From positions 6,414 through 70,413 of the forward strand of contig CAZADH010000003.1 of NCBI GenBank assembly GCA_964483805.1: a DNA stretch of 64,000 nt, read 5' to 3'. The notes under the pieces were generated by a model that worked only from the letters and a program-made list of their open reading frames with translations, was not told the origin of the DNA and did not search any database. The position numbers and the translations under genes were made by a program. Source of the DNA: an uncultured bacterium. Its GTDB lineage: Bacteria; Muiribacteriota; Ozemobacteria; Ozemobacterales; Ozemobacteraceae. Of the stretch, positions 4,286-22,620 are shown one piece after another (position 1 is the stretch's first letter; each line of letters begins with the position of its first letter).

Positions 4286-4305
4286 ATCGCGGGAGTCGCA
4301 TTACC

Positions 4306-4363
4306 CAGAGGCGACAATCGGATTTGAACCGATGAGTGACGGTTTTGCAGACCGTTGCCTTAC
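4306..4363 (-). repeat. 58-bp direct repeat identical to the 3' part of tRNA-Cys (anticodon stem to acceptor 3' end plus 3 nt): putative attachment-site duplication (island left end)
   Basis: Sequence cagaggcgacaatcggatttgaaccgatgagtgacggttttgcagaccgttgccttac is identical to 20635..20692 inside and just 3' of the intact tRNA-Cys gene; the 5' part of the tRNA is absent here. Confidence 0.8.
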
Positions 4364-4416
4364 TACGTCCCTGGAGCGCCGCTCCATTAGCGACTTTCAA
4401 TGGTTGCACAGAATAC

Positions 4417-4463
4417 ATCGTATGGATGTCGATCGTGGTGGTCGAACGCGACTGCTCCACAGA
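4417..4463. promoter_or_regulatory. Copy 1 of a ~48-bp conserved element (…cgtatggatgtcgatcgtggtggtcgaacgcgactgctccaca…) upstream of hicAB
   Basis: About 85% identical to 5161..5210, which sits upstream of the vapBC-like pair; a sigma70-like -35/-10 (TTGACG 4480-4485 / TAATAT 4501-4506) follows before the hicA ATG at 4516. Confidence 0.5.
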
Positions 4464-4515
4464 CTGCGTTCCAACGATCTTGACGGATATTACATTATTG
4501 TAATATCGTCCTATA

Positions 4516-4707
4516 ATGACAGGTAGGCAGGTCATCAAGATCCTCGAAGCTCATGGTTGGCGGCTGGCACGCATCCATGGCAGTCACCACGTCATGGTCA
4601 AGCCCGGCGCACCACGATCGGTCCCGGTGCCCGTGCATGGCACCGCCGACATCGGCAAGGACCTCTTGAAGCGCATCGAGCGGCAAACTGGAGTGAAACT
4701 GACATGA
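4516..4707 (+). CDS. hicA: HicA-family mRNA interferase toxin
   Basis: 63 aa; motif ...ILEAHGWRLARIHGSHHVMVKPG... matches HicA (YcfA-like) toxins; ATGA overlap with the downstream antitoxin. Confidence 0.8.
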   Translation: MTGRQVIKILEAHGWRLARIHGSHHVMVKPGAPRSVPVPVHGTADIGKDLLKRIERQTGVKLT

Positions 4708-5117
4708 ACTTTTCTTACCCATTCACGATCAAACCTCAGAGCGACCGGGGTTACCTGGTTGAGTTCGTCGATATCGAAGAGGCCTTTACCGAAGGGCAAA
4801 CCATTGAGGAAGCGGTGTTCAACGCCCAAGAGGTCCTGACCGCCATTCTGGAGCAGCGCCTTGAAGACGGCGCCGATATCCCACTGCCATCGGCGGGAAA
4901 ATACAAGTACCGCACCACTCCATCGGCGTCAGTGCAGGCCGCCCTGCTGGTTCACAAGTCGCGCAACGGTACCAGCCTGGCTGACCTTGCCCGAGCGCTG
5001 GGCGCCTCCTGGCCGGTGGCGCAACGTCTCGAAAAACCCAAACACTCGCCAACCCTGCGGCAACTGGAACGGGCAGCAGCAGCATTGGGCAAGCGGCTCA
5101 TCCTGTCGTTTGAGTAG
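4704..5117 (+). CDS. hicB: HicB-family antitoxin (RNase-H-like N-domain + C-terminal HTH)
   Basis: 137 aa starting MNFSYPFTIKPQSDRGYLVEFVDIEEAFTEGQTIEEA... (typical HicB N-terminus); C-terminal helix-turn-helix-like segment; start codon overlaps the hicA stop. Confidence 0.7.
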   Translation: MNFSYPFTIKPQSDRGYLVEFVDIEEAFTEGQTIEEAVFNAQEVLTAILEQRLEDGADIPLPSAGKYKYRTTPSASVQAALLVHKSRNGTSLADLARALGASWPVAQRLEKPKHSPTLRQLERAAAALGKRLILSFE

Positions 5118-5160
5118 GTCGACAGCAGCGCCAGAAGTGGGTTCTCGCAGACCCAGAGCA

Positions 5161-5210
5161 TACGTCGTATGGATGACGTTCGTGGTGATCGAACGCGACT
5201 GCTCCACAAA
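5161..5210. promoter_or_regulatory. Copy 2 of the ~48-bp conserved element, upstream of the vapBC-like pair
   Basis: tacgtcgtatggatgacgttcgtggtgatcgaacgcgactgctccacaaa; paralogous to 4417..4463. Confidence 0.5.
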
Positions 5211-5345
5211 TTACCTCACGCAGGTGGGATCGTACCATGGGCGTGATCGACCGGCAACTGCTGGTATGTCTTGCTTCACTCCGACTTCGTCGTTGCTTTG
5301 TGCTATTATTACCGTGAGCCGGAATACGGCTGGAGGAGCACAGTC

Positions 5346-5570
5346 ATGTCGGCATTGACCCGCGAAATCGACCAGGAAATCTCGGCCCTGCCCGAGGAAC
5401 TCCAACGGCAGGTCCTCGACTACATCCGGCAACTGCGCACTCGGCGAATGCCCGGAGTCCCGGGGCCGCAGATGGTCCGGTTTGCCGGCATGTTTACGGC
5501 CGAAGAGGCCGACGCCATGTTGGCCGACATCAACGCCGCCTGCGGGCAGATCGACCATGGCGGCTGGTAG
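5346..5570 (+). CDS. Putative type II antitoxin (VapB-like) partnered with the PIN toxin
   Basis: 74 aa, acidic/helical; GGAGGAG RBS 8 nt upstream; 14-nt overlap with the downstream PIN-domain gene. Confidence 0.55.
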   Translation: MSALTREIDQEISALPEELQRQVLDYIRQLRTRRMPGVPGPQMVRFAGMFTAEEADAMLADINAACGQIDHGGW

Positions 5571-5973
5571 AGTTCTTCTCGACACCAACATCGCGATCCC
5601 TCTCCTCGCCAAGGATGCGGTCATCCTGCGCCGCCTGGAAGCCCCCATCGAGGTCTTCGTCCCCAGCATCGTCATCGGCGAGCTGTACTACGGCGCATTT
5701 CATTCGGCACGTGCCACCGAAAATGCACGGAAAATCAGCGAATTTGCTCTGTCCATGAAGGTGCTTGGTTGCGACATGCATTCAGCCCGGCTGTATGGTG
5801 AAATCAAAGCCGCGCTCCGCAGCATTGGGATGCCGATCCCCGAAAATGACCTTTGGATTGCCGCCGTGGCCCGACAGCACGAACTCACCCTCGTCACTCG
5901 CGACGCACACTTTGCCAAAGTGCCCAGTCTGTCCGTCGAGGACTGGTCGGTCGAGTCACCCGGCGGCACCTGA
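5557..5973 (+). CDS. vapC: PIN-domain ribonuclease toxin (VapC family)
   Basis: 138 aa; LLDTNIAIPLL...D...E...TRD pattern of PIN acidic residues; overlaps the upstream antitoxin gene. Confidence 0.75.
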   Translation: MAAGRVLLDTNIAIPLLAKDAVILRRLEAPIEVFVPSIVIGELYYGAFHSARATENARKISEFALSMKVLGCDMHSARLYGEIKAALRSIGMPIPENDLWIAAVARQHELTLVTRDAHFAKVPSLSVEDWSVESPGGT

Positions 5974-6063
5974 AGTCGCGGGGCGATCCCACGTTCATCT
6001 GGGTCCCTCGTCCATGCTTTTCACCATGTCGACGCCGCCCGGATGTAGTGGTTTGGGCACGGC

Positions 6064-6126
6064 CAAATTCGAGAAGCTCACCGTCAAATTCGATGAGCTG
6101 CCGAGCAAATTAGAGGAGCTCGTCGG
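6064..6126. repeat. Three tandem 21-bp repeats (CAAATTCGAGAAGCTCACCGT / CAAATTCGATGAGCTGCCGAG / CAAATTAGAGGAGCTCGTCGG)
   Basis: Direct inspection; two-helical-turn periodicity in the spacer between vapC and the next ORF. Confidence 0.6.
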
Positions 6127-6147
6127 CCAACCCTGAGGTGCTCGACA

Positions 6148-6438
6148 ATGGTGCGCCTGGTTCCAGGGGAGATTGAGTTCGAGGTTGATAACCCTGAGCT
6201 GCTGCCCAAGAAGTATGTGTTCCATGAAGTTCAGGAGTCGTTGAACCCACTCTGGGGCCGAATTGAACGGGCCCTGGAACGTGGCGAGGTAATCCCCGGT
6301 ATTCGACGGGTCCCCGCCACGCCGGTGGTCAAGATCACCAAGGTTGCAATACAATCGAGGTCAAAGTCAGCGGCGAATTCGGCCAAGAACAGGAGGTCGA
6401 AAGCATGCTTGCGCGCATCAAGAAGGTCTGGCTCGTAA
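6148..6438 (+). CDS. Hypothetical small protein
   Basis: 96-aa ORF with GAGGTG RBS; overlaps the start of the next ORF; no recognisable domain. Confidence 0.3.
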   Translation: MVRLVPGEIEFEVDNPELLPKKYVFHEVQESLNPLWGRIERALERGEVIPGIRRVPATPVVKITKVAIQSRSKSAANSAKNRRSKACLRASRRSGS

Positions 6439-7460
6439 CCACCTTCGTGGTTGTCGTGTTGGTCCCGGCGGGTATCGGTGAGTATCTCAGGTGGAATAGA
6501 AACCCTGACATGGCGACCAATGCGTTGGCGGCGGCCCAGAACCATTGGGCGGCCAAGAACTATGACGGAGCATTGGCGGTCTACGATTACGTGATCGCCA
6601 ACGACCTCGACGGGGTCGATGTGGCTGAGGCCAGCCGCTCTGCTCTGCTCGATCTGCGGTACTCGTGGTCGAGCACGCTGAAGAGCGGTGTGTCCGGCTA
6701 TGTGACGGGCGAGATCGAGGATGGTGCCTCGCTCGTTGGTTGCGTGGCCGCCGATCTCACGGTGGTGGGCGATGTCCGGGACCTGATCAAACAGGGTTAC
6801 CGGAAGCTCACCGGTGGCGAGGTCGATACGATCAATGCTGCCTTGTCGGCGGCGGGATTGGGGATGACCGTGCTGCCGGAGATCGGCGCCGGCATCTCGA
6901 TCTGCAAGCAGATGCTGAAGTTCATGAACCCAGCGGTGAAAGCCCGTCTGGTGAGGCTGATCGAAATGGCCAAGGAAGCCAAGAATGCGACGGATCTGGT
7001 GGCATTCGCCGAGGATATCGGCAAAGCCTACGGCAAGATCGGCACTGGCATCTTCGGGGTCCTGCGCTCTGCAGGTAACGCCGAGGAGCTAAGCACGATC
7101 CTGAAGGTCATCGAGGCCGGCGGCAAGAAGAGCTACGCTGTTCTGCTGATTGGCGGCAAGGCTGCGACCGAGTTCATGACCGAAGCGATGAAGCAGGGTG
7201 TGGCGCTGACCGGCACTGCCGGCAAGCACGCGTTACGCTTCGGTCTGCAGTACCCGAAACTGGGTGTGCGTTTGGCGAAGATCACCAAGACGGTCGGCTG
7301 GGACCACTTCGATGTGGCGGTGATCGCTGCGGCTGACCTGCTGGCGAAGTTGTCGTTGCAGACGACTTTGCTGGCCGGGTTGGCGGTGTGGCTGTGGTTC
7401 CATTGGCTTGACGTACTCGGGCTGATGGTATTCCGCAGCCGGAAACAAGCGGTGGCGTGA
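6405..7460 (+). CDS. Hypothetical membrane-anchored protein
   Basis: 351 aa; N-terminal TM helix (VWLVTTFVVVVLVPAGIG) and C-terminal hydrophobic helix; otherwise no recognisable motifs. Confidence 0.5.
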   Translation: MLARIKKVWLVTTFVVVVLVPAGIGEYLRWNRNPDMATNALAAAQNHWAAKNYDGALAVYDYVIANDLDGVDVAEASRSALLDLRYSWSSTLKSGVSGYVTGEIEDGASLVGCVAADLTVVGDVRDLIKQGYRKLTGGEVDTINAALSAAGLGMTVLPEIGAGISICKQMLKFMNPAVKARLVRLIEMAKEAKNATDLVAFAEDIGKAYGKIGTGIFGVLRSAGNAEELSTILKVIEAGGKKSYAVLLIGGKAATEFMTEAMKQGVALTGTAGKHALRFGLQYPKLGVRLAKITKTVGWDHFDVAVIAAADLLAKLSLQTTLLAGLAVWLWFHWLDVLGLMVFRSRKQAVA

Positions 7461-7483
7461 GCTGCCGCTTGGCAGTAAAGGAA

Positions 7484-7508
7484 GGCGGGTGATGGGCCCG
7501 CTTTTCTT
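7484..7508 (+). terminator. Possible rho-independent terminator (gcggg-tgatgg-cccgc + TTTTCTTT)
   Basis: Short GC stem followed by a T-run after the 6405..7460 gene. Confidence 0.35.
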
Positions 7509-7590
7509 TAGCGGTCGGTGCGGTTGGGAACGGACAAAGAGGGAACAACCTATGCCCTGGGCCCCGGGCTGGTGGGGCTTACCACAGCCC

Positions 7591-7887
7591 GTTACCTGGC
7601 ACCCCAAAAACAGGTAACGGAGGGCGACCCCACACCAAGCCGCACAAACAGAGGACAGAGAGCAGATAGAAATACATTATGTTACCTAAGTTACCTGTTT
7701 CCTGATGAGGGTGTCTACGTATGTGGGCTTCTGCGTGTGTCTCTTCACCCACCAAATACATGGTCATACACACGCACACGTGTATATACGGAGTGCCTCG
7801 TCGAAAAACAGGTAACATAGGTAACAGGGGGTGATGAAAATGTCGTTGAGTGGCTCTGGGAGCGAGGCTATGGCCGTTACCTGTCTG
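7591..7887. promoter_or_regulatory. ORF-free region A with clustered CAGGTAAC/GTTACCTG boxes, including palindrome GTTACCTG-N12-CAGGTAAC (7591..7618)
   Basis: Boxes at 7591-7598, 7611-7618, 7681-7687, 7690-7697, 7809-7816, 7820-7825 and 7876-7883; same box order and orientation as region B (11481..11905). Confidence 0.6.
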
Positions 7888-7981
7888 CAAAAAAACGATA
7901 GGAAATCAACGACCCGTGCAACGCATGGCATCCGACGTATTGCCTCAAAACCCTGGCGGGGACGTGCCAGCCTACCCACCG

Positions 7982-10900
7982 TCAGTTTGCGTTCTTCACT
8001 ACTCTGAAGCCGGTCCACCGACTCTTGTAGGTCGGCGAAACACCGTTTCGCCAAGCGGCCCGGCAGTATTCGGCACCGTTGTCGATGCTGCCTCCCCTGT
8101 AGACCCGGCCACTGCCGGACGATGGGCCACGGGGATCGGCTGCACTGCCGCTCTCGTATTGCGTCGCGTACCAATCCCAGCACCACTCCCACACGTTTCC
8201 AGCCATGTCGTAGAGGCGATTCGAGTTTGGGCGGGACGTCCCGGGCACGTGCGTGGTCGCGCCACTATTGGTCGAATACCAGCAGTAGGCACCATCTATT
8301 GAACCGCCCCAGAAATAGGCAGTGGTTGAGTTCCCGCGATACGAGCCCTCCCACTCAGCTTCGGTTGGCAAACGATAACCGTTCGCATCCCAGTCGCACG
8401 TCACAACGTCACCAACGGCAATGGAAGTGGCGCCGGCCTGGTTTCGGTAGGCAGGAACACAGCCAAGGCGCACGCTCAATGCATTGCAGAAATTAACTGC
8501 GTCGAACCACGAAACCTGCTCAACAGGGCGAGACAGATCACCCGTGAAATACGATGGATTGACCTCTGTCACCGCTTTGTACTGCGCCTGGGTCACTTCA
8601 GTCGTCGCCATCAGGAAGGCCCGACTGATAGACACCTGATGTTGCGGCCCTTCGGAGCTTGACCGATTTGACTCGTCCGCTGGGCTCCCCATCGTGAACG
8701 TGCTCGCTGGAATTTGAACGAAAGCCATCGAAGCTCCGCCTCCGAGATCAGCTACACTCACTCCAGCCAGTTTCGCAATCTCCGAAGGAGTAAGTTGACG
8801 GTTGAAGACGCTGACATCATCAATCTCTCCCTGAAAGTTAGTTCCTGCATAGAACGAGGAACCAAGACGCATCCCCGTCAGGGCTGGGGCTGTAAGCATG
8901 CTTCCTGTATAGGAATTGCTGGCGATGAGAACCCCGTCCAAGTAAGTTGCCATCCCCTGTGAACCCCACGTCCCGACAACGTGAAACCAGCGTTCCACCG
9001 TAGGTACCCTGCCAGTGTCGGCCCATCTCCACCCCAATGGAGGTGGCGCGTAGACCCCGAACATCAGAGTATTCCCGCCGAACGCACCAATACTGAGGAG
9101 ATCACCCGTGCTTGTGATGCCAGAAAACACGTGAAGACCTTGCGTGGCCGTCCGAATCCAACTGGTCGGTTGGAACCACATTGAGATGGTTCCTGCCGTG
9201 AAGCCATTGATGATGGCAGGAAGGCCACCCTGCTTGTTACACCATCAAACGAAAAGGCGGAATTGACTCTGCCCCAACGGTCGATCGCAGGTGTCGTGTT
9301 CACTGCAACTCCGTCACGCCCAAGCCCTGATGCATCATTCGCGTTGCCATCCAGTGGATAATGAGCGACGAGGCCATCCGTCACGCCAATGTCCGTGCCA
9401 CCGTTAGTTCCCGTGCCTGCCTGCGCCGACAGACGGGTTACCTTCACTTCCTTATACCCCAGCCATACATTGTCTGCGACATTCGTCATCACACAGAATC
9501 CAACAGTCTTGGTCATGCCGACGGGAATCCAGCTGATGTCGAAGTCTGCACTCCGCATCTGCACCGAAGAATCGATGTTCAGAAAATCGTGCCCGTGGCT
9601 TGTGGAGTCACAGTAGGAGTAGAAGTAATATTCGGGGGAACCCGCCCCTACCGAAAGAGCGGGAACCCCAATGCGAATGGTCGTCGAACTGGTCGCGAGT
9701 CCGTCAAGGGGCGTCACCTGGCCATTCGAGACCGTCTTGAAGTCGAGATCAGGGTGTCCGACGAGACCACCCCGAGCCACATTATCAAAGACATCGCCGA
9801 TTGAGTTCCAGTCGATTAGCGATGCCTTTGCTACCAACGTGAACCTTGTGAACATCACGGGCATCTGTCCTTGACTCGGATTCAGTCGCATCTCGACAGG
9901 TTGGATCTGTCCGTTGGTGAACGTGGTAGACCGCTCAATGCCAGGGTAATTCGGGTCGTAGAACCAGATGGTTGACCCGTTCGCGCGATAAACAAGCAGC
10001 GCGTGTCCGTGACCCCCCTGCGCATCCGCTACCCCGAGGAACAGGGGTGCCTTCGTCACCCGCAAGGCTGCTTTCATAGCAGCAAAGGTAATCGTATGAT
10101 TCAGATCGAAACCCGTGCCGTGCACAGACGATGATTTCTGGAGGCGCGAGCAAAACCTGATTGTTTGGGCGTCATCCTGCCAGGCCACCTTGGTGGAATC
10201 CGAGTTCCAAACCGTCGTGCCGTTGGTCCAGAAGTTGTAGAGGGACTGCCCGCCTCTCCCATATCTCTCGTAGTACCAAGCGGCACCGAGCGTCATGCCC
10301 GTGCAGATACCACCTTGCGACAGACTCGAACCGCAATTCTCAGTTCGCCATCCGTCACGCTGTGGCCGAAATCCCGTGTCGACGTCGGGCGAGATGACGT
10401 CAGCGATCGGAAACGCGATCACCGCGATCGGGAGAATCGTGGGGAGAATCGTCACCAACCCACGTCGACTCGGAGAGGTCGACGAGTTGACCTGCGTGGA
10501 AAATGTGAGCTGTCCGTTTGAATAGCCGGTCACAGGCAGCACCGTGACGGCCCCCGTCGTCGGGTCGGTCTGGACCGCAAGCGCAATCTCATCCTGACGG
10601 GCGGTTGTCGGTACGGTGATTGAGACGGGACCACTACTCGGAACACCGGTTGATTGAACGACAATAGCAGGGGCCACTGGTCGTCCAGTGCTTATCGGCA
10701 GAGACAGCGAACTGACGCTTGCACAACTGACCTGGAGCTGGGTCGGCGTCGAAAACGCACCGGCGGGAATGTCAATCTTGAGCCCGGTCAGCGGTGATGC
10801 AGCAGTAACCGTAACGGTCTGCGTGCCCGTGGAAGCGCTGATTTCTTGCACGACCGTTGGCGTCTCAGTCACCACAGTCGAGAACGGGACACCATCAGTC

Positions 10901-11460
10901 TGCCACAAACTGAGCAGGCTTTCGACGGCGGCCGAACTGGCTCTATCAACTCGGGAAATGAGCGGAAACAACTGGCCACAGGCACCCATGCGAACCTTTG
11001 CGAACAAAACCGGGTTGGCAACGACATCGGCAATGCCATGAAAATCTGATTGGCCTGCAATTTGCCCACCCTCGACACGGATGGAGGCGATTGTCGGCAG
11101 TGCCAAGATCTGGAACGTGGCCTCGACAACACCATTCGTGACCGAGACCGTTTGCGAAGCCACGATTGTCGGTGTGGCCATGTTGCCCGGTTGAACAGAC
11201 GTGATTACAAAGGTCACGGTCGGGTTTGTCGTGGTCGTCGCAACCTGAAGGGACGCTCGCCCATTGTATGAATCAACCTTGAGAGAAAACCTCAACGCCG
11301 CATGCCCAACGTTAACAGGACTCGTTACCAAACCCTGGATTTGACCGGGAGAATCCGAAAAAGATACCCCAGTGGACTCCTGGGGCAAACACCCCGCCAG
11401 CACGAGCACAAAGACAATACATACGCCCACGAGGGCGATCGTGAGGATCCTCTGTTTCAT
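7982..11460 (-). pseudogene. Frameshifted gene for a ~1160-aa surface lipoprotein: lipobox signal peptide + Ig-like/beta-rich region + C39-like cysteine peptidase domain + LamG (concanavalin-like) domain + FGE-sulfatase (formylglycine-generating-enzyme family) domain
   Basis: ORF 9064..11460 (signal ...VLVLAGC; CTGMTLGAAWYYERYG ... GGHGHALLVYRANGSTIWFYDPNYPG resembling C39-like peptidases) ends inside a LamG domain (...SFDGVTSRVAFLP). The domain continues in another frame (AIINGFTAGTISMWFQPTSW...) into ORF 7982..9181, which ends with FGE-sulfatase motifs (GYRLPTEAEWE...YDMAGNVWEWCWDWY...RGGS). A single-nucleotide indel near 9215-9218 restores one reading frame. Confidence 0.7.
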
Positions 11461-11480
11461 GGTCGGTCTCCGGGTTGAGT

Positions 11481-11905
11481 GAAGTTACCGGGGGTAACTA
11501 ATGGGGTTCTGGCACCACGATATCATAAGACGGCGGCGGGGTGCTCGGACCACCGAGACAGATTCGCCGACAGGGGATTGTATGCACATGCATACTGCCA
11601 CTCGGGACATTATTCCCACGGAATACCACGTCACCAGGGCGCCAACGTCAGCGCCAGTCACCTGGGGTTGCCTCCGGTTACCTGGTGAATCTACAAACAG
11701 GTAACCGTCATTGACCCCATTGGGGGACCTATGAACAGACGGAACGCAACAACCATAAGAAGATAGATTACCTGGGTTACCTATTTCTTTCATACATACC
11801 CTATACGTATGGGCGCTCTCTCCGCCCCCCCCCCCGACCACGTGCGACATAATACGTATAGGTGGGTGTGTGCCTGCCGAAAACAGGTAATCCAGGTAAT
11901 CCGGA
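11481..11905. promoter_or_regulatory. ORF-free region B upstream of the lipoprotein gene with clustered CAGGTAAC/GTTACC boxes, including palindromes GTTACC-N3-GGTAAC (11484..11498) and GTTACCTG-N13-CAGGTAAC (11677..11705)
   Basis: Further boxes at 11767-11782 and 11884-11900; paralogous arrangement to region A; contains the presumptive promoter of the 9064..11460 gene. Confidence 0.6.
11825..11835. repeat. Homopolymeric C11 (G11 on the coding strand of the downstream gene) tract
   Basis: Eleven consecutive C at 11825-11835 inside regulatory region B, ~365 bp upstream of the lipoprotein start codon. Confidence 0.8.
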
Positions 11906-12002
11906 GCAGGCAGGGTGGTGCCTGATGGCTTCGGTAGCAGATCCACAAACATTACCGATTGCCGGCGAGAGATGGGTAATCAACGGAGAATCGTGCTTTG
12001 CC

Positions 12003-12617
12003 TTACTTCAGGAACGGCAGCATGAGCCGGCGCACGTCGGCGACGACGGCGGCATCGATGGACTGCAGTTCCTGGATGATTCTCGGCCAATTAGTTGGAT
12101 ACAGGAAGCGAGTGTGAACAACCTTGATGTCGAGAGAACGAATCCTATCCATTAAGCGGTTTTCGCCCTCAGCAAGTTCCTTCTTGTAACCACTGCCGAT
12201 GATGACAACACCAACCCGGGTCTTCACAAATGGATGGGCGGCCAACGCGTCAACATGGGCCCGGATCTTCTCCGGAATGCTCGACCGTATCTCGTCTTTG
12301 TCTTGTCGTTCCATGCGGAGCGGTATCGGAGAGATGTCTGCAAAGGCAATCGGGCTACGCTCGTTGCCAGGGCCGTTGCCAAGTAACCGAGCCTTCAACT
12401 CTCGGGTAGACAACTTGGGATCAAGCAGTTCGCCGATCAACTTGTGCGCTGTGTTCCAGAACCCGCACCTTGGTGTGCCTTTAAGATCGTAGGGGCCAAT
12501 GTCCGGGCCGCCTTCGCCCAAGAAATTCGCTTCTCTCCCCACCACGAGAATCATGTTTTTGAAACCTGGCACCAGTTGGCCGTCGCCCAGAACCGAGATC
12601 ATTGGATGTTTGCTCAT
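12003..12617 (-). CDS. Hypothetical protein (possible Rossmann-like C-terminal half)
   Basis: 204-aa ORF in an operon-like arrangement downstream of the sigma-54 activator; no confident domain assignment. Confidence 0.45.
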   Translation of the reverse strand: MSKHPMISVLGDGQLVPGFKNMILVVGREANFLGEGGPDIGPYDLKGTPRCGFWNTAHKLIGELLDPKLSTRELKARLLGNGPGNERSPIAFADISPIPLRMERQDKDEIRSSIPEKIRAHVDALAAHPFVKTRVGVVIIGSGYKKELAEGENRLMDRIRSLDIKVVHTRFLYPTNWPRIIQELQSIDAAVVADVRRLMLPFLK

Positions 12618-12689
12618 CCGACCCTCCTCTCCTATGTTGAAGGTGCCAACGAAATTCGCACATGGCGATCCGTCGCGCAGAACAAGGGT

Positions 12690-12949
12690 TCACTCCAGCG
12701 CCACTTTGATGACAACCCGCCGTTCACCTGGAAGAATCTCGATCTTCTCGATCTTTCCAGGCCACTCGTCAAAGGTCATCCGCTCAACGAATCGGCCGCT
12801 GTCAGCGTCGATGAGGCGCAACAGATCGTTCGCAGAGGCACGCCGCGCAGGAACAGATGACCCCTTCCGGTTGGTCTTCACAACAACCTCGTAATCCCCC
12901 TCGTTTCCGAACACGAAATGATACTCAGGCATGATGGCCCTCCGTTCAG
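12690..12949 (-). CDS. Hypothetical small protein
   Basis: About 86 aa (MTERRAIMPEYHF...); lies between the activator gene and the 12003..12617 gene on the same strand. Confidence 0.35.
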
Positions 12950-12972
12950 TCATACTTTGGGCGTTGATCGGC

Positions 12973-14604
12973 CTACTCGTTCGCCAAACGTTTTCGCAAG
13001 GTGTTCTCCGCCACATCCAGTGTCTTTGCAAGCGTCTTGATCGGAACATGACTCCACCGCTTCCGGACAGCACCTACATACTTTCGCATGACGGCATCAC
13101 ACGTGGCAGGTTCCGGCAAGGTCGCAACAAGTTGGTTGATCGCCTCATCCACCGTGCCCGACGGACAGTTCGTTGCAAGCGCAGTGCCGGCCCGTGGCTC
13201 TGACCGGCCTGAAGCCCCTTGTCGGGACGGATCCGTTCCGCAGGAAGTGCGTTTGGCGTCCTGCATTCGTTCACGAAGCTCATCGATGACGTCTCTGCTC
13301 TTGCCCAATTGCAGGTGGACCTTCACAACCGACACAAGTTCACGAAAGTTGCCGGGCCACGAGTAGCCCTTGAGAACATCGAGATTCCGAGTGAAGAAGC
13401 TCAATGCCTCATCGACGGTGATATGGCGTTGTCCCTCGCGGATGTATTTACGAAACACTACATGTCTTATGACACGAATGATGTCATCGGGCACATCGCG
13501 CAGGGCCGGGGTGCGGATTACGACGTCGGCGATTCGAAAATAGAGATCGCGACGAAGCGTACCGTCGTGCAGCATATTCTGCATGCGAGGCTGGCCAGCA
13601 GCGATGATGCGAACATCCGCTTGCTTCTCATCAGTCCCACCCACCTGGCGGTATCTGCGTGTTTGCAGAAAACGCAGCAAATCCGCCTGCACGGCTGGGG
13701 GCATGTCCGGCAACTCGTCGAGGAACAGCGTTCCACCGTTCGCCTCGCCGATTAACCCTTTGGTTGTGGAGTGCGCCCCGGTAAATGCACCCTGCACATG
13801 CCCGAACAGCTCGGATCGCAGGATCTGCTCCTGTAGACCAGCACAGTTGATCGCAACGAACTTCTTGCCGCGACGCCGACTGAAGTCGTGCAGAAAGAAC
13901 GCCGCGGCTTCCTTGCCCGTACCCGTTTCCCCGATCAACATCACCGACAGGTCGCTTGACGCTACTGAAGCGACTTCGCTCTTGAGGCGGTTGATGGCCG
14001 GAGTGCAGCCTGCAAGGAATGGCAGGCCCGCCTCATGATAGTGTGCCACCGCCTGTTGGAGCGTAGGGCCGATCTGTTTCTGAAACTGATCGCTTCCCGC
14101 CAAACGCCTTACTGTCTCAACTGCATCACGCATCAGCGACGGAGATTCAAACTGCATTAGACATCGATCAGCCAGGTAGTTGAGGATCATGAACAAGGCC
14201 TCTTGATTACTGGCGAATGCCTTGCACACAGGCGTCCACGCGGAACCTGGTCTGAATAGCCTTTCCCCGGCGGTGACCAGATCCGGAGCAATGGAATTGC
14301 GCACACCAATCCCCTTGAAAAACGAGGCGTTCAGCCTGCCATACTTGTCCGACCCAACCCACGTGACATCCGCCTTCCTTGCCAGGTTCTTCAATAGACG
14401 CCGTGACTCGTCGATCCGGCGCACATCTTTCAGAAAAATCACGATCTCGCGAGCAGGCGGTTTCTTGCACCACTCAGGCAGAACCTCCAAGATTGCTTTG
14501 CTGCCGACGTTCACGATCTTGTCGGTCGGAACGTAAACCATCGCAGCGGCGATTAGCCCCTCTGCGTCAGGACTGATTGCGAGTATCCGATCGCGTGGTG
14601 CCAT
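12973..14604 (-). CDS. Sigma-54-dependent transcriptional activator (bEBP, NtrC family) with an atypical ~230-aa N-terminal sensory domain
   Basis: AAA+ sigma-54 interaction domain with Walker A (GETGTGKE), the GAFTGA motif, an arginine finger and a C-terminal HTH. The N-terminus is not a canonical receiver. ATG 14602-14604 with AGGAG RBS preferred over the GTG at 14634. Confidence 0.85.
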   Translation of the reverse strand: MAPRDRILAISPDAEGLIAAAMVYVPTDKIVNVGSKAILEVLPEWCKKPPAREIVIFLKDVRRIDESRRLLKNLARKADVTWVGSDKYGRLNASFFKGIGVRNSIAPDLVTAGERLFRPGSAWTPVCKAFASNQEALFMILNYLADRCLMQFESPSLMRDAVETVRRLAGSDQFQKQIGPTLQQAVAHYHEAGLPFLAGCTPAINRLKSEVASVASSDLSVMLIGETGTGKEAAAFFLHDFSRRRGKKFVAINCAGLQEQILRSELFGHVQGAFTGAHSTTKGLIGEANGGTLFLDELPDMPPAVQADLLRFLQTRRYRQVGGTDEKQADVRIIAAGQPRMQNMLHDGTLRRDLYFRIADVVIRTPALRDVPDDIIRVIRHVVFRKYIREGQRHITVDEALSFFTRNLDVLKGYSWPGNFRELVSVVKVHLQLGKSRDVIDELRERMQDAKRTSCGTDPSRQGASGRSEPRAGTALATNCPSGTVDEAINQLVATLPEPATCDAVMRKYVGAVRKRWSHVPIKTLAKTLDVAENTLRKRLANE

Positions 14605-14623
14605 TGAGATGCTCCTGGTCAAG

Positions 14624-14644
14624 AGTGTTATCACAGAATAACAC
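14624..14644. promoter_or_regulatory. Perfect palindrome GTGTTAT-N6-ATAACAC overlapping the 5' end / promoter region of the activator gene
   Basis: 7-6-7 inverted repeat seen directly; ~20 bp upstream of the preferred ATG. Confidence 0.5.
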
Positions 14645-14806
14645 CACGGTTGCCGAGAGCATATTTTGATGTGTTGCCGCAGTTTCTGCCCACCCTGTCA
14701 TAGTCTAGGAGTTCGTCCCCGAAAACCTCCGCGACTGAAGGTTCAGTCGCAGAAGGCCCATTTGTTCACATGCGGTGACATCCAGCTCGGTGAACGAGCG
14801 ACCGAC

Positions 14807-16369
14807 TTAGCTTTGGCGAAGGGCCGACAAACCCGCCAAGAGTCTTCTTCCTGCCACAACCGCCGAAGGGTGGGCGCGCGTCGCACACGGAAGACCGACT
14901 AATTCTGCGGTCGCCCGCTGCCATTCGGACAGTGTCTCTGACGCAGCGCTACCGCACCCGGACCGAACGGCCTGAGCCGCCTTCTTCTCGCCCTCAGGCT
15001 CTTCCGTATTACTCTCTGCAACCCCTTGGATTACGGCTCTCGGAAGCCCCAGCACGCGCCCTGTGAGGACCAGAGCCGACGATCTGCTCCGCCTCAGGAT
15101 CAGGCCGGCACGAACGGCATACTCCCCACCGATCGCACTGATAATCCGATCGACGAGTTCATCCCGCCTGCTGGCGTCCACGTCGAGATCCAAGGATGGG
15201 ACCACAAGCCGTTTGCGGTCAAGAAACGTGCCGGTCCCAGGGCCTCGACCAGCGGAACAGTCCGCAGTCAGCCCGAGGACGAAACCAACCAGGCATGATC
15301 CCGCCGATCGGTGAGGAGGGAGCACCGCGATATCCATTGCTTTAGCGACGTCCAAAATCTTCGCACCAAGAATGAAATACTCTGTAAGGCCGAGGTCGTC
15401 GATGGCACGCAGTTCGGTTTCGAGCAGGCGAAGGTGCGTGTGGCCAAGGCCGCGCAGACTCAGACCAGCACGGCAACGCTCGGCCAACTCGCTGAGTAGG
15501 TCGTTGTCAAAGCGCAGCTTGGGTAGCGTGAGCGTTCCCAGATCGAGGTCGACAGAGCACAGATCTGCAACGCGTCGTGAGTTGGCCAATGCTTCCGGGA
15601 TGTCGCAGAATGTTGCAGCCATTTCCTTGCCAGACTTCAACCAGAACTCATCGGTGGGGAAGTGAACTCGGGTGGGGTCGTCGATGGTCGCTCCTGTCAC
15701 GCCTGCCAGCAAGATTTCGTGGGCGCGGGCATGCTCCCTTGTCACATAGTGCACGTCGTTGGTGGCCACGACGCCGACCCGGAGGCGCCTGGCGAGCCCT
15801 AGGAGTTGCGGCATCAGACCTCGTTGCTCAGGAATACCATGGTTCTGGAGCTCGATAAAGAATCGGTCGCGCCCGAACAGGCGGGTCCATTTTTCGAGCG
15901 CAACCTCAGCATCTTTCTGCATTCCTCGCAGGAGAAGACCTGGAATCTCTCCCCACAAACATGCGCTAAGCCCAACCAATCCGCGACAATGTTGCGCCAG
16001 GAACTCGAACTCGACATGCGGTCTCGACAAGGAACCGCGATGGGCCCGGGTCACCAGCGCAATCAGGTTTTGGTAACCAGTCGAATTCTCGGCCAGCAAT
16101 ACAATGTGTGTCACGCTGATCGGGGGGCACGCCTCACTCCGTTCGCTGCCAACCGTCAGCTCAATGCCATGAATCGGTTTGATTCCGCGTTTCTTGGAGG
16201 CAACGTGGAAAGCCACCGACCCTTGGAGCGTGTCATGGTCGGTCAGAGCCAGAGCGGACATTCCCATTGATGCGGCCGCATCGGCAAGTTGGCCGACTCT
16301 TGCGGTGCTGTCGCCCATGCTGTGCTCGCTGTGAACGTGAAGGTGGACGAAATCGTTACTCGTTCGCAT
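14807..16369 (-). pseudogene. Truncated DNA polymerase III alpha (DnaE/DnaE2-like) N-terminal fragment: PHP domain plus the beginning of the palm
   Basis: HLHVHSEHSMGDS...LALTDHD PHP metal-binding motifs; ORF is only ~520 aa versus >1000 aa for DnaE and stops with no downstream continuation in any frame. Confidence 0.6.
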
Positions 16370-16630
16370 GGTCCCTCCGTTGCGTTCTCTCGTCGTCACC
16401 ACCCAGCCAAGCAACTTTCGGGCCACGCAAGATCTTCAACTGGAATTCAGCGAATCGCTGCACTTCGCCGGCCTTGAGCGGCGACAGGTAGGTGCGCGGC
16501 GCGTCGCTGGCGAGAGCAATCGGCGTGATGTGCGCCGCTATCCGGTCCAATGCCTAGATGCCCCGCCTTGCTGCAACAGAGCCGCATAGTCATCGGCAAC
16601 CGTGCAGCAGGTTTGGGCCACTACTTGACC

Positions 16631-17644
16631 CTACTCAAGATCTTCTGCCGGTTGAGGAACAAACACCTTCTTCAGAGGAATGATGCTCTTATACGCTGAA
16701 TCCATCTTGTCATAGTATCTGAGCACCAGGTCGACCAGTTCCTGCCCGTCAACCAAGCGCAGGTTGCTCTTGCTTCTGGCAAAAGCTCTTGCCTGGCTGC
16801 TGAACGTGCTGAGCGAAACGAGCAGGCCATACTCTGTTGAGGCGACTTTGCCGTACAACGCGGAAACGGCTGGATCCCCAATCGTTCCGTCATTGCTCTT
16901 AACCTGCACCTTCACAATTGGCGGAACAAAGCCAAGTTCGTCCGTGTGTGCGATGATGTCAACGCCACCATCTGGTCCTTCGGGAGAAACCCTCGTGTGG
17001 TAGCCCATTAACCCGAGAATGTGGGCGACAAACTCAGAGAATGGATGCCCCTTCAGCTCCTGAGAGAGTTGTTTCAGAATGAAATCACGCGTCGTTTCCT
17101 CGATCTCTGCCGCCACTGGCGCAATCGTCTCGTCAACGTCAGGATCCACGATGTCTGGTTTTTCCTTGGAGTCCATGCGCTTGTAAATCTCGTCTGCATA
17201 GTTTCTTATCTGAAAAAACGACATCGCCGAACCCATCTCAAAAAGGGCCCCTTGAGAAAACGCAGTCCTCGGGATCGCCCTCAACCACTGGACTTTCCTT
17301 CGATTTGGATATCTTGGAACCAACTCAGTCGAAAACTCGTAGCCACCAACGACCTTTGCAACGTTGACCGTCCGATCATGCCTTCTGGGATAGATAACCA
17401 AGTCTCCCACCTTCATTTCATGAACAAAGCGATAGAGTTGGCCCGCGTAGTTTGCTATCGCCCCTTTTTTGACAGCCGCGTATGCTTTTTTGATGGCCTC
17501 TTTGAATGCGTCCCTGGACTTGCCAATTGAGGAGAGGTCCCCGAGCTCAGCCCAGCCCAAAGCGACACAGGGCTTTGTCATGAACAAGCCGTCGGCGTCA
17601 CCCACACGTCCGCCATGGATCCCCCACACAGTTTGTGTTGTCAT
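16631..17644 (-). CDS. mrr: Mrr-family type IV (modification-dependent) restriction endonuclease
   Basis: Mrr_N-like winged-helix N-terminus and Mrr_cat core (GYHTRVSPEGPDGGVDIIAH ... VKVQVK) with the PD-(D/E)xK arrangement; start at ATG 17644 (AAGGA RBS) preferred over 17680. Confidence 0.75.
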   Translation of the reverse strand: MTTQTVWGIHGGRVGDADGLFMTKPCVALGWAELGDLSSIGKSRDAFKEAIKKAYAAVKKGAIANYAGQLYRFVHEMKVGDLVIYPRRHDRTVNVAKVVGGYEFSTELVPRYPNRRKVQWLRAIPRTAFSQGALFEMGSAMSFFQIRNYADEIYKRMDSKEKPDIVDPDVDETIAPVAAEIEETTRDFILKQLSQELKGHPFSEFVAHILGLMGYHTRVSPEGPDGGVDIIAHTDELGFVPPIVKVQVKSNDGTIGDPAVSALYGKVASTEYGLLVSLSTFSSQARAFARSKSNLRLVDGQELVDLVLRYYDKMDSAYKSIIPLKKVFVPQPAEDLE

Positions 17645-17949
17645 TTCACAGTTGTCCTTTGCATGATTGCAGGCCATCATACGAGATACATACGTCGATG
17701 GCCATCGATACGCATCCCATTGGCCCCATGCAATCGTCGGAATTCACCTGTTTCGAGAACACAGGGGCATTTGACGTGGCGCTGGACGCTTTCACCATCC
17801 GATGGGCACATCGAATGTTGCTCGTTGGCAGATCATAAATTGATGTTGCGTCGTCACTCGCTCCATGAGGCGAATGCACGTGCATGTGCGGATGGAAACC
17901 GCGTTTTCATTCGTGATACCATCGAACTAGACGAAGGAGAGGACGCCAG

Positions 17950-18375
17950 ATGAGCTTGAATGCAGCCCCGGCCAAACACCGCACCCAGATCACCGGCAAC
18001 GTCGGCTTGTACTACGTCTGCTACAAGCTTTCACGGATGGGCTGGAACGTTCTGCCCACCTCAAGGAACGCCAGGGGCATCGATATCATTGCCTACAGCC
18101 AGGACGCCTCGCGTTACGTGGCGATCCAGGTAAAAGCGTTGAGGAAACGGAATCCGGTGCCGCTGGGCAAAGACCTCGACAAGATCATGGGCGACTTCTG
18201 GGTGATCGTGAACAACCTGGCCGGCGAACCTGCTGCGTTCATCCTGAGGCCCAAAGAGGTAAGGAAGCGTGTCCATGAAGGTGTGAAGAACGGAGTGAGG
18301 AGTTACTGGCTTCAGCCAAAGCAATATGATGTAGGTCAATTCCGTGAGGCCTGGCATAGGATTGGGCCGGGATAA
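17950..18375 (+). CDS. Small PD-(D/E)xK-type nuclease-fold protein (hypothetical)
   Basis: 141 aa; GIDIIAYS ... YVAIQVK resembles the D...(E/Q)xK motif of restriction-endonuclease-like folds; GAAGGAG RBS. Confidence 0.45.
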   Translation: MSLNAAPAKHRTQITGNVGLYYVCYKLSRMGWNVLPTSRNARGIDIIAYSQDASRYVAIQVKALRKRNPVPLGKDLDKIMGDFWVIVNNLAGEPAAFILRPKEVRKRVHEGVKNGVRSYWLQPKQYDVGQFREAWHRIGPG

Positions 18376-18406
18376 TTGTGACCGAGAACCAAGGCGGAGG
18401 ATCGAC

Positions 18407-19543
18407 ATGAAAGCACCAGCACACCCGAACTTGGCGGGCGTTGTTGTCTTCATCCTGTGGGTATCGGTCGCTCTTTTCGTGGTCGGATGCGCCACTCGGG
18501 ACAGCAACCCGTTGACGGTGACAACAGGTTCGACAATCAGCACACTGGCACCGACCACCGGCGCGAGAGTGCTACTGTCGGTTCGCCTCGACGGATTCGA
18601 TGGTCGCCCCAGCGTCGTTACGTCCAGCGGCTCAACACCACCAACCGTAACAGCAGTTCTCGTTACATTCGACTACGCCGCCGTTCCCCCTGCAATGACA
18701 ACCGTTGCCACGACTATGCCTGTGTCGATCGACGGCGTGGCCACAGCATCGTTCAGCAATCTGCCCATCAGACCTACGCTGGCCAGGGTCGTCGTGAACG
18801 GCGGGACGATCTCTACGTATTCGCGGTTTCGTGGTGGTGCCGACTTGGTGGCAGGTTCGAACGCCATCGTCGTGAACCCGGAGAGCAGTGCTTTTCAAGG
18901 GGATCTTGTAGGATATGCCCTCGAAAAGATCGTATCGAGTGCTGGCTATCTGACACAGGTGCGGACTGGCCTTGTCGCGGCAATTCGGGCAAGAACCTCG
19001 GTGCTGCAGGGGAGATCTCCAAGTTCGGCGTATTCGGATGTCGACGCGAACCTGCCGGTGATACTTGCGGCGTTGTCGAGCACAGGTATTGGGACAGGTT
19101 CTGGGACCGGGGTTGGAACGGGCACGGGTTCTGGATCGGGGACTGGAACCGGCACAGGGACCGGGGTCGCATTGACCGCTGATCAACTGCTCACCGCCCA
19201 ACTGATTGGCACGTGGAAAATGTCATACATTACATTCAGCCTGACTGGCCAACTGCGACAGGTCGTCCCCAATTCCCTGGGCCAGATTACGACGATCACC
19301 TTCAACGCAGATGGTTTGGGGATGAGCGTCGACTACTCCCGATACACCTCGACCCAAATGACCTATTACCAGACGAAGGAGACCACGGGTGTCGTCACAT
19401 ACGCTTCGTGGTTCATCTCGAACGGCAGGATGGTCTCGACGTCCAGCGAGGGAACCTTCACGAACTCAGTTGCTATTCAGGGAAACACGTTGACGCAAAC
19501 GTCGATGGATGGGGAAGTGGCGTTGTGGACGAGGGTTTCGTGA
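18407..19543 (+). CDS. Lipoprotein with a Gly-Thr/Ser repeat linker (hypothetical)
   Basis: Signal peptide with lipobox (FVVGC); internal GTGSGTGVGTGTGSGSGTGTGTGTG linker; GGAGG RBS. Confidence 0.6.
   Translation: MKAPAHPNLAGVVVFILWVSVALFVVGCATRDSNPLTVTTGSTISTLAPTTGARVLLSVRLDGFDGRPSVVTSSGSTPPTVTAVLVTFDYAAVPPAMTTVATTMPVSIDGVATASFSNLPIRPTLARVVVNGGTISTYSRFRGGADLVAGSNAIVVNPESSAFQGDLVGYALEKIVSSAGYLTQVRTGLVAAIRARTSVLQGRSPSSAYSDVDANLPVILAALSSTGIGTGSGTGVGTGTGSGSGTGTGTGTGVALTADQLLTAQLIGTWKMSYITFSLTGQLRQVVPNSLGQITTITFNADGLGMSVDYSRYTSTQMTYYQTKETTGVVTYASWFISNGRMVSTSSEGTFTNSVAIQGNTLTQTSMDGEVALWTRVS
19085..19180 (+). repeat. Tandem hexanucleotide (GGNACN)n repeat encoding the (GT/GS)n linker
   Basis: About 16 consecutive 6-nt units seen directly. 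Confidence 0.7.
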
Positions 19544-19604
19544 ACGGCCATATGCAATCGCATATCGCCCACGTCACCGCCGGCATCGCCAGAAAGGCCG
19601 GATC

Positions 19605-20486
19605 ATGACCTACCGCCGCCGCCCACCTCGATACAACCGTGACGACCATGAGGCCTTCGGACATACTGCCGAATGGGACCGCAGGGGCGCGAAGGCAATC
19701 CCGCCGCTGCATACCTGCAGATTCGAGACCGAGAACCACCATGCCTACATCAACATGCAGATCAGGCCGGAACACCGGAATCCTCAGTCGATGCAGAAGT
19801 TGTCGGCCGAGATCTTTCCTCTCACTGGCCACAAGCTCGTTTGCGTGCAAGAGATCGGCGAAGACACGATAGAACGCTGCCTATACCAGGCTCAAGACGC
19901 CAACGACCTGACGCCCGATGCCGGCGCCGAGTTTCGCCTACGGATCACCGTGAACTGTCGCGATGTGGTCAGCTTCATCATTCCACCGTCATACGGAGAC
20001 AAGATTGGGGCGAAGCATGCTCTGCTGGCTGTATTGCGAAAGTACTTCGTTGACTCGTTGGGGAAACCCATTGTCCGGGGCATTCCCGAGACGAGAGCCG
20101 ACACCGACCTCGGTAAAGAACAACGAAAAGAGCGGCATCACCGCAGGTATGAAACCCCGCACTCAGAAGCGCCGGGCTCCCCGATCGAGGAAATGCTGGC
20201 AGCCGAAATGACCCGGTGCGGCATTGTTTTCACGCCCCAACCACAGAGCTTGATCGACGAGAAGTTGTTCACCCGACCAGACTTCTTGGTCGAGGAGCTC
20301 AAATTGATCATCTACTGCGATGGGTTCGAGTTTCACGCTACCAAGGAACGCATCATCCGCGACAAACAGCAAGACAGGGTATTGCAGATCAATGGGTTCC
20401 GCGTGTTCCGGTTCTCGGGATCGGAGATCGTGGCCGATGTTAATCGGTGCGTACGGGATGTGCTGGAGTTGAAGACAAAGGGTTGA
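19605..20486 (+). CDS. DUF559 (Vsr-like endonuclease fold) domain protein
   Basis: C-terminal ...PDFLVEELKLIIYCDGFEFHATKERIIRDKQQDRVLQINGFRVFRFSGSEI... typical of DUF559; N-terminal ~190 aa unassigned. Confidence 0.55.
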   Translation: MTYRRRPPRYNRDDHEAFGHTAEWDRRGAKAIPPLHTCRFETENHHAYINMQIRPEHRNPQSMQKLSAEIFPLTGHKLVCVQEIGEDTIERCLYQAQDANDLTPDAGAEFRLRITVNCRDVVSFIIPPSYGDKIGAKHALLAVLRKYFVDSLGKPIVRGIPETRADTDLGKEQRKERHHRRYETPHSEAPGSPIEEMLAAEMTRCGIVFTPQPQSLIDEKLFTRPDFLVEELKLIIYCDGFEFHATKERIIRDKQQDRVLQINGFRVFRFSGSEIVADVNRCVRDVLELKTKG

Positions 20487-20574
20487 GACGGGATTACCGG
20501 TTGGTTTTAATGACAGGCAATCGAGATGATGGCCCACAAACCATGATGGGAAGCGCGAAACTCAACCTCGTTAA

Positions 20575-20613
20575 ACGAAACCGAGACCCAGAAAGTCTGC
20601 TCTGGGTCTCGGT
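20575..20613. terminator. Hairpin ccgagacccag-aaagtctgc-tctgggtctcgg with a T-run; shared terminator between the DUF559 gene and the tRNA cluster
   Basis: 11-bp perfect stem followed by tttcgg. Confidence 0.55.
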
Positions 20614-20637
20614 TTCGGACGGACTGACCGCCAACAG

Positions 20638-20709
20638 AGGCGACAATCGGATTTGAACCGATGAGTGACGGTTTTGCAGACCGTTGCCTTACCACTTGGC
20701 TATGTCGCC
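20638..20709 (-). tRNA. tRNA-Cys (GCA)
   Basis: Reverse complement folds as a cloverleaf with 7-bp acceptor stem, T-loop GGTTCAAATCC and anticodon loop CTGCAAA; no encoded CCA. Confidence 0.85.
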
Positions 20710-20723
20710 GAGCCATGAAAAAG

Positions 20724-20796
<73 letters not shown>

Positions 20797-20813
20797 ATTC
20801 AGACAACTAACAG

Positions 20814-22610: not shown

Positions 22611-22620
22611 TTCCGGTTTT

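Follow-up and report, generated by a model that had tools for sequence, protein, structure and literature searches.

An integrase-less genomic island at the 3' end of a tRNA-Cys gene in an uncultured member of the Riflebacteria/Ozemobacteraceae

The DNA analysed here, denominated the window throughout, is a 64-kb stretch of contig CAZADH010000003.1, which belongs to the genome assembly of an uncultured Ozemobacteraceae bacterium (GCA_964483805.1). Four tRNA genes are arrayed on its minus strand at 20637-20974, in the order Val (20902-20974), Asp (20813-20887), Phe (20723-20796) and Cys. All were called by ARAGORN, and Rfam agrees. The last gene of the array is an intact tRNA-Cys with the anticodon GCA (20637/20638-20709), which scores 70.1 bits in Rfam. 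The 3' part of this gene is found a second time, in the same orientation, at 4306-4363. The two copies enclose 16.3 kb (4364-20634), called here the island, and the tRNA-Phe, -Asp and -Val genes (20723-20974) are the rest of a conserved native array lying outside it. An earlier note, made from the sequence alone, had read this arrangement as the footprint of site-specific insertion at a tRNA 3' end, by an element now lacking an integrase and thus either immobilised or mobilised in trans. The sharp edge of the repeat, a break of synteny at tRNA-Cys and the comparison with relatives all support that view.

The two repeat copies, located by a repeat search over the whole window, are identical at 58 positions out of 58, and ARAGORN, Rfam and the repeat search agree with the earlier note in that tRNA-Cys and an exact copy of its 3' part bracket the segment. 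The right copy (20635-20692, minus strand, attL-like) consists of the 3' 56 nt of tRNA-Cys plus two downstream nt, and the left copy (4306-4363, minus strand, attR-like) exactly reproduces this 3' part; the repeat thus runs from tRNA-Cys position 18, in the D-loop, to the 3' end and 2-3 bases beyond it. Allowing up to three mismatches, the 58-mer matches twice in the 64 kb, versus 0.00 matches expected from dinucleotide shuffles; a scattered tRNA-Cys pseudogene family, which would have spoken against the insertion, is therefore not seen as far as the window extends. At 4363/4364 the identity falls abruptly from 58/58 to 14/24 (about 58%), a step that marks the edge of the shared core. No tRNA was called by ARAGORN at the left copy. 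The Rfam tRNA model matches 4309-4372 with 31.6 bits (the gathering score is 29), with the D-arm largely missing, and aligns 4364-4372 as a 5' acceptor strand. These nine nucleotides are unlike the 5' half of tRNA-Cys, which is strongly conserved in every relative compared, and their likeness to a tRNA is read as a residue of the attP site of the element, or as chance. No further tRNA-derived fragments were found in the window, and hence nothing points to tandem accretion.

The complete tRNA lies against the conserved native array, and the 3' fragment borders what was ancestrally the downstream flank. This is the geometry expected when a circular element, endowed with an attP site matching the tRNA, recombines within the tRNA gene. 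Potential terminators are found next to both copies. A GC-rich hairpin (4261-4285), read from the sequence, lies 20 nt from the tRNA 3' fragment, between this and the stop codon of a gene encoding a fused major facilitator superfamily (MFS)/spermidine-synthase protein, and is thus also located 3' of that convergent gene. It is likely the original bidirectional terminator common to the tRNA array and the convergent gene. A second hairpin on the minus strand (20576-20617), with a 17-bp stem revealed by blastn as a self-complementary 17-mer, lies on the 3' side of the intact tRNA-Cys, some 20 nt away. It was brought by the island DNA, and is probably what terminates the tRNA operon at present. 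At the opposite end of the array, the top sigma-70-like promoter match of the scanned region (TTGACT, a spacer of 17 nt, TATCAT; 10/12 positions) is located on the minus strand at 21016-20988, directly upstream of tRNA-Val, and is consistent with one promoter driving a four-tRNA operon.

The host is a divergent, uncultured member of the Riflebacteria/Ozemobacteraceae, seen in several metagenome data sets. All the named relatives of its PrmA protein (23909-24835) belong to Candidatus Riflebacteria/Ozemobacteraceae, at 52% identity or less. The loci surrounding PrmA orthologues were compared in four lineages (L013/L014, L016/L017, L018/L019 and L020). In all four, the order and the orientation of the genes found at 24.8-20.6 kb in the window are kept: PrmA (50-51% identity) is followed by an ORF (open reading frame) of about 300 aa (52-57%), a DUF6263 gene (70-72%), a small ORF (53-61%) and the tRNA-Val-Asp-Phe-Cys array. 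Synteny stops exactly at tRNA-Cys, and the DNA beyond it varies from lineage to lineage. In tblastn searches, no island protein matched the loci of the relatives.

The left flank of the island provides a marker of the ancestral, uninterrupted arrangement. This is a 663-aa ORF of no recognised family (129-2120, minus strand), homologues of which are found in the L016/L017 and L020 lineages as the gene immediately following tRNA-Cys, in the same orientation. The tblastn matches extend over 485 aa with 35-36% identity (E=1e-75 and 1e-71), and in the reciprocal search this ORF was the only match in the window. The array being conserved, island genes being absent from the relatives' loci, and the left-flank homologue directly following tRNA-Cys in two relatives, the island is best read as an insertion at the 3' end of tRNA-Cys. 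Relative to the arrangement of those lineages, the window features both the 16.3-kb island and the MFS/spermidine-synthase gene (2014-4260) inserted between tRNA-Cys and ORF 129-2120. The latter gene, flanked by the partial tRNA copy on one side and the ancestral neighbour on the other, is absent from the loci of the relatives. Its own copy apart, no relative exceeding 37% identity was found among 5.8 billion proteins, and the nearest homologues are from Gemmatimonadota, Planctomycetota and other groups. Its composition is host-like, and the gene may have been acquired earlier at this hotspot and have ameliorated since.

The island was searched for genes that could have mediated its insertion or transfer. 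Long ORFs were compared to Pfam at E<=0.01. In addition, six-frame stop-to-stop segments were assembled into concatenated queries joined by X residues, and compared to Pfam at E<=1; these comprised 88 segments of at least 35 aa located outside the long ORFs, and 94 segments of at least 60 aa corresponding to alternative frames under them. Integrase, resolvase, transposase, relaxase and excisionase domains were absent from the long ORFs, and neither set of segments contained a recombinase, transposase, excisionase, relaxase or phage structural domain. The sole real match among these was to the HicA toxin (E=1.7e-16), and its recovery from concatenated queries served as a positive control that domains are detectable there. 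According to PHROGs, none of the 10 unannotated ORFs, small possible excisionases included, has a mobility function, and NCBIfam and PADLOC revealed no recombinase among the unannotated ORFs. The only PHROGs matches obtained were weak, involved families with no assigned function, and concerned two nuclease-like ORFs. Phage structural, lysis and replication genes, or their remnants, were found neither by Pfam in the long ORFs nor by PHROGs in the unannotated ones. The island similarly lacks type IV secretion system and replication-initiator domains, and no recombinase is encoded by the other large ORFs of the window. The claim that no integrase is visible in any frame holds, therefore, at the sensitivity of profile hidden Markov models. 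A recombinase with a fold foreign to Pfam is conceivable, but the unannotated ORFs seem to encode a membrane protein, lipoproteins and small soluble proteins.

The cargo was annotated by using Pfam, PADLOC, NCBIfam and PHROGs, along with gene calls on metagenome contigs from JGI. Three such contigs match the island at 4430-9232 (L010), 4435-7122 (L011) and 11841-18369 (L012) with at least 99.9% identity, and island segments have been seen in two JGI samples. Pfam and gene calls confirmed the presence of two TA modules, a sigma-54 activator and a truncated dnaE, as had been reported. The TA modules are both on the plus strand. One is HicAB, composed of the HicA toxin (4516-4707, Pfam HicA_toxin) and the HicB antitoxin (4704-5117, HicB_lk_antitox), both called as genes on L010 and L011. 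The other is a VapBC-like pair, in which a PIN-domain toxin (5557-5973, Pfam PIN E=9e-18) is preceded by a putative antitoxin of 74 aa (5346-5570), assigned as such from its position; both are called on L010. A predicted membrane protein of 351 aa and no recognised family follows on the plus strand (6405-7460), and is intact in the window. The large lipoprotein gene (7982-11460, minus strand) encodes a signal peptide with a lipobox, then LamG (Laminin_G_3) and FGE-sulfatase domains according to Pfam. Two unannotated ORFs of 204 aa (12003-12617) and 87 aa (12690-12953) separate it from the gene for a sigma-54-dependent AAA+ activator (12973-14634, minus strand; Pfam Sigma54_activat E=7e-58), a protein of 522 aa as called on L012. 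The N-terminal 200 aa or so of the activator fit no family, and the NCBIfam and PADLOC matches, including RtcR-like families, are restricted to the AAA+ part. The truncated DnaE-like gene (14807-16426, minus strand) encodes a PHP domain and the first part of the DNA_pol3_alpha domain of Pfam.

Nuclease-like genes are found in the right half of the island. The 16631-17680 gene (minus strand) encodes an Mrr-family restriction-endonuclease-like protein (Pfam Mrr_cat E=4e-25), which also matches over its full length PDC-S02, a PADLOC candidate single-gene defence family (E=3.8e-131). A 141-aa ORF on the plus strand (17950-18375) has weak PD-(D/E)xK similarity, as it matches Pfam Mrr_cat_2 under the curated cut-off (E=2e-4), and two PHROGs families with no assigned function at about 3e-6. 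It is followed on the plus strand by a 399-aa lipoprotein gene (18344-19543; the lipobox was read from the translation), the product of which shares about 100 paralogous N-terminal residues with the large lipoprotein (BLASTP, 36% identity over 98 aa, E=9e-7). The last gene (19509-20486, plus strand) encodes a 325-aa protein with a C-terminal DUF559/Vsr-like endonuclease domain (Pfam DUF559 E=6e-8; matches to NCBIfam vsr and PADLOC Vsr are weak), and fills the tRNA-proximal slot where an integrase gene normally sits. Of the three nucleases listed in the earlier note, the Mrr and the DUF559/Vsr-like proteins are thus confirmed, and the third is a weak PD-(D/E)xK-like candidate. No complete multi-gene defence system was recognised in the island by PADLOC, and full-length agreement with a PADLOC model is limited to a single gene.

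Two repeated sequences are interspersed with the cargo genes. A 55-nt direct repeat (4407-4461 and 5154-5208; 89% identity, with a common exact 20-mer) is found upstream of each TA module. Its interpretation as attC sites, of an integron or of a cluster of attC sites lacking an integron integrase (CALIN), or as attP arm sites, was discarded, because the copies are two only and single-stranded DNA folds are not conserved (z = -2.2 and -0.6); moreover, no copy follows the second cassette, and no integron integrase was found. The repeat may be a common regulatory segment or the relic of a cassette duplication. The second sequence is a non-coding element of about 300 nt, present in two diverged copies in the same orientation (7590-7890, copy A; 11676-11950, copy B) which share about 74% column identity, and are marked by GGTAAC/GTTACC motifs at conserved spacings. 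The sequence AAACAGGTAAC, allowing one mismatch at most, is found 8 times in the window versus 0.29 expected, and 7 of the 8 matches fall inside the two copies. Copy A occupies a convergent intergenic region. Copy B is found a short distance upstream of the large lipoprotein gene, beside the perfect palindrome GTTACCgggGGTAAC (11486-11500). Neither matches an Rfam family. The hypothesis that they are sigma-54 promoter or enhancer regions serving the activator encoded by the island was dismissed, as the 8 promoter matches compare with 5.6 expected, and none falls in these regions.

The window and the JGI contigs exhibit few differences in the island, and three of them touch stop codons or the reading frame. 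At 6792, CAG in the window is TAG in L010 and L011, which derive from two JGI assemblies, and the 351-aa membrane protein ORF is consequently split. At 14809, TAA in the window is AAA in L012, and the DnaE-like ORF is extended by 34 codons. At about 9225, L010 has one extra base. Because of this indel, the large lipoprotein gene is read in the window as two ORFs, of 798 aa and 399 aa, and in the L010 variant a single 1,159-aa ORF is found, in which LamG is uninterrupted. As the L010 differences are within 42 nt of the end of this contig, an error is possible on the L010 side too. The frameshift of the giant lipoprotein mentioned in the earlier note therefore does occur in the window, as a polymorphism or an assembly error rather than as a fixed pseudogene, and its value as proof of decay was downgraded accordingly.

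The DnaE-like gene ends at about 45% of the length of a full polymerase both in the window and in L012, some 70-170 nt before the next gene. Its closest homologues, itself excluded, are only 37-40% identical and belong to mixed phyla. Being short in both assemblies, and having homologues so distant, it is read as a genuine fragment and not a copy of a host gene; the same identities, 40% at most, dispose of the idea that it is a recent duplicate of the host dnaE. Many of the homologues are also short (420-680 aa), and combine PHP with the initial part of the pol III alpha domain. Several of them are on long contigs (for example of 143 kb and 188 kb), so that truncation by a contig end is not evident. 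There may exist a stand-alone family of short DnaE-like proteins, of which the island copy would be a member rather than a broken gene. Taken as a whole, the pattern of the cargo fits relaxed selection on dispensable genes.

Assemblies independent of the window support its junctions to different degrees. The JGI contig L009 (sample 3300009776), which is the one contig retrieved by scanning the JGI metagenomes for the exact 58-mer, corresponds to 17605-20820 at 100% identity; it links island DNA, across the whole repeat and tRNA-Cys, to tRNA-Phe, and the integrated right junction is thereby independently confirmed. On the left side, the Logan contig L006 (SRR12133404) corresponds to 726-4335, and breaks off after exactly 30 nt of the left repeat copy. 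Since 30 nt is k-1 for a graph with k=31, which breaks at true repeats, the left flank enters the same repeat. The passage from the repeat to the island (4336-4430) rests on the assembly of the window itself and on this graph-break argument. Exact-protein look-ups yielded short contigs only, none of them extending across the left repeat. To the right of the array, contigs from five other assemblies of the organism break within 21.9-23.65 kb (at 21921/21922, 22794, 23466, 23645 and 23649), and the first 33 nt of the ENA contig L007 are unlike the window beyond 21922. This suggests strain-level variation in, or beside, the DUF6263 gene.

The island deviates in composition, a property that the earlier note had advised computing. 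Its tetranucleotide distance is 0.23-0.32 versus 0.12-0.17 in the core, and the G+C content at third codon positions is about 0.60-0.69 in most of its genes versus 0.70-0.82 in core genes. However, low GC (0.55-0.57) and a high tetranucleotide distance resembling those of the island are also found at 20975-23900, in the genes for the 175-aa protein, DUF6263 (21840-22610) and the protein of about 312-373 aa, all of which have syntenic orthologues in every relative examined. The low GC extending to 23.9 kb had raised the possibility of a second island to the right of the array, which was abandoned because the three genes are syntenic orthologues with 52-72% identity. The longest-ORF call on the minus strand at 21747-22757 merely shadows the DUF6263 gene proper, which is on the plus strand. 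Elsewhere in the window, a local GC dip (0.553 at 45-46 kb) coincides with a 609-aa ORF (44239-46068) in which a weak DnaB_C-like helicase domain (E=5e-18) is preceded by 300 unannotated N-terminal aa, and which could be a primase-helicase of mobile-element origin. Two adjacent paralogous genes at 37352-43293 (minus strand) encode large HAMP and SpoIIE (PP2C phosphatase) proteins of 974 and 1,007 aa.

The repeat, the intact tRNA, the lack of recombinase domains, the break of synteny at tRNA-Cys and the disruptive polymorphisms are direct observations, and are best accounted for by the past integrase-mediated insertion of an element at the 3' end of tRNA-Cys, followed by the loss of its integration and transfer modules. 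A probability of about 75% is assigned to this reading. We infer that an integrase made the insertion, that its gene lay inside the element and that it was subsequently deleted. According to the model, a mobile element with an attP site matching tRNA-Cys from position 18 to the 3' end would have integrated into the last gene of the array. Integration would have rebuilt a complete tRNA-Cys at 20637-20709, and displaced the original 3' end and the old terminator hairpin by 16.3 kb, to 4306-4363. The integrase gene, any excisionase gene and any transfer or replication module would later have been deleted, leaving the remaining cargo under relaxed selection and an element plausibly no longer able to excise by itself.

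Several observations weigh against this reconstruction. The evidence for an empty site, the search for which had been advised in the earlier note, was obtained at the family level, in the L016/L017 and L020 lineages; the homologue of the left-flank ORF is 35-36% identical, and the additional MFS/spermidine-synthase gene lies in between. An empty site from the same species was found neither in scans of genome contigs nor in scans of metagenomes with the left-flank protein. Scans with the 56-mer and the 58-mer gave no genome, one JGI contig, which is the occupied right junction, and no viral contig (the 58-mer is absent from 2.9 million of these), and no junction of the attB or attP type was found. 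No independent contig crosses the left copy into the island, as L010 starts at 4430 and L011 at 4435. Composition is a weak criterion in this genome, because the native 21-23.9 kb stretch is similarly atypical. Neither an integrase trace nor a backbone gene of a phage or of an integrative and conjugative element (ICE) is left to reveal the type of the parent element. Finally, an identity of 58 bp reaching into the D-loop is rather long for the att cores of tRNA genes.

The island could alternatively be a functional cis-mobilizable element (CIME) with intact attL and attR, in which case excision, and perhaps transfer, would depend on an integrase supplied from another place in the genome or by a related incoming element targeting tRNA-Cys. 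The complete identity of the repeat copies, the presumed core sites of which are undecayed, is in keeping with this view, and mobilisation in trans and accretion are documented for CIMEs (PMC5704250). Yet no integrase is encoded in the window, neither a third repeat copy nor a tandem element was found, the scans returned no attP-type or empty attB contig, and the disruptive polymorphisms and the truncated gene point to decay, against a mobile unit under active selection. The explanation is regarded as unlikely. Slightly more doubtful still is its fuller version, in which a still functional Riflebacteria CIME, encoding no mobility function itself, would have its defence and TA cargo moved between cells by a tRNA-Cys-specific integrase that recognises the conserved 58-bp att cores and resides elsewhere in the genome or in the community; if true, no earlier description of such an element in Riflebacteria would exist.

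A different origin would be the local duplication of tRNA-Cys, with the two copies kept identical by gene conversion and the intervening DNA gathered piecemeal at a hotspot. The weak similarity persisting past the 58 bp (14/24; binomial p of about 0.001, uncorrected for the choice of end point) and the Rfam score of the left copy, slightly over threshold for a tRNA devoid of the D-arm, can be cited in its favour, as can the hotspot-like variation of the region following tRNA-Cys in every relative and a heterogeneous cargo with no backbone genes. Uniform decay, however, would not produce a drop from 100% to about 58% at one position, which is what a core boundary looks like. The part that was kept is exactly the 3' portion, and the location of the complete gene at the array and of the fragment at the ancestral flank is the geometry of integration. 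In addition, the 5' stretch of the partial copy is unlike the conserved tRNA-Cys 5' half of any relative, and the window has no other tRNA-derived fragments. Duplication is thus considered improbable. The least credible of the alternatives, to which hardly any weight is given, is an assembly artefact joining through the 58-bp repeat two loci, or an extrachromosomal element and the chromosome. The contig was assembled from a metagenome, no independent contig spans 4336-4430, and the other assemblies of the organism are fragmented and of low coverage; against this, L009 spans the whole right copy at 100% identity from 17605 to 20820, the break of the Logan contig at k-1 = 30 nt puts the left flank into the same repeat, and island segments recur at 99.9% identity or more in two JGI samples.

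An insertion followed by loss of the integrase, as favoured here, assigns the island to a known class. CIMEs, att-flanked elements devoid of an integrase, are a category defined in a 2017 paper (PMC5704250). Like them, the island has a direct repeat at each end, one copy being the 3' end of the target tRNA gene; it carries cargo only, and lacks integrase, excisionase, relaxase and conjugation genes. Both repeats are kept, and their function as att sites is putative. The CIMEs described are mostly from Firmicutes, are traceable to families of ICEs or of integrative and mobilizable elements, and are often in tandem with a live element (PMC5704250). In contrast, the island has no backbone remnant and no tandem partner, and its mobilisation in trans is only putative. 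With classical tRNA islands, and with Prophage 05 of Pseudomonas fluorescens Pf-5, a prophage remnant at tRNA-Cys with 84-bp direct repeats (PMC2647930), it has in common a long repeat covering the anticodon and T arms, an atypical composition, which in the window extends to native genes as well, accessory cargo and signs of degradation, and with Prophage 05 also the tRNA-Cys target. An intact tRNA and a distal repeat are found here as in integrase-bearing tRNA islands, but the internal recombinase gene is missing; classical islands and Prophage 05 keep, beside the tRNA, an integrase gene, either intact or frameshifted, and the DUF559/Vsr-like gene is found there in the island. Regions rich in defence and TA genes resemble the island for the PDC-S02 Mrr gene, the further nuclease-like ORFs, HicAB and the PIN-toxin pair, and differ from it because the lipoproteins, the sigma-54 activator, the DnaE fragment and the membrane protein are unrelated to defence.

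The island is, in conclusion, an ordinary, decaying, CIME-like scar of a well-described kind, found in an unusual host lineage. No new mechanistic question is raised by it, since att-flanked islands lacking an integrase are well described. The locus also recommends caution in handling metagenome-assembled sequences, as low GC ran over native genes and the frameshift of an apparent pseudogene vanished in a second assembly. For a candidate phylum that has been poorly sampled (Riflebacteria/Ozemobacteraceae relatives from anaerobic digesters), the 3' end of the Val-Asp-Phe-Cys array is marked as an insertion hotspot in the lineage, and the 4364-20634 interval can be annotated as accessory DNA that was acquired horizontally and is decaying.

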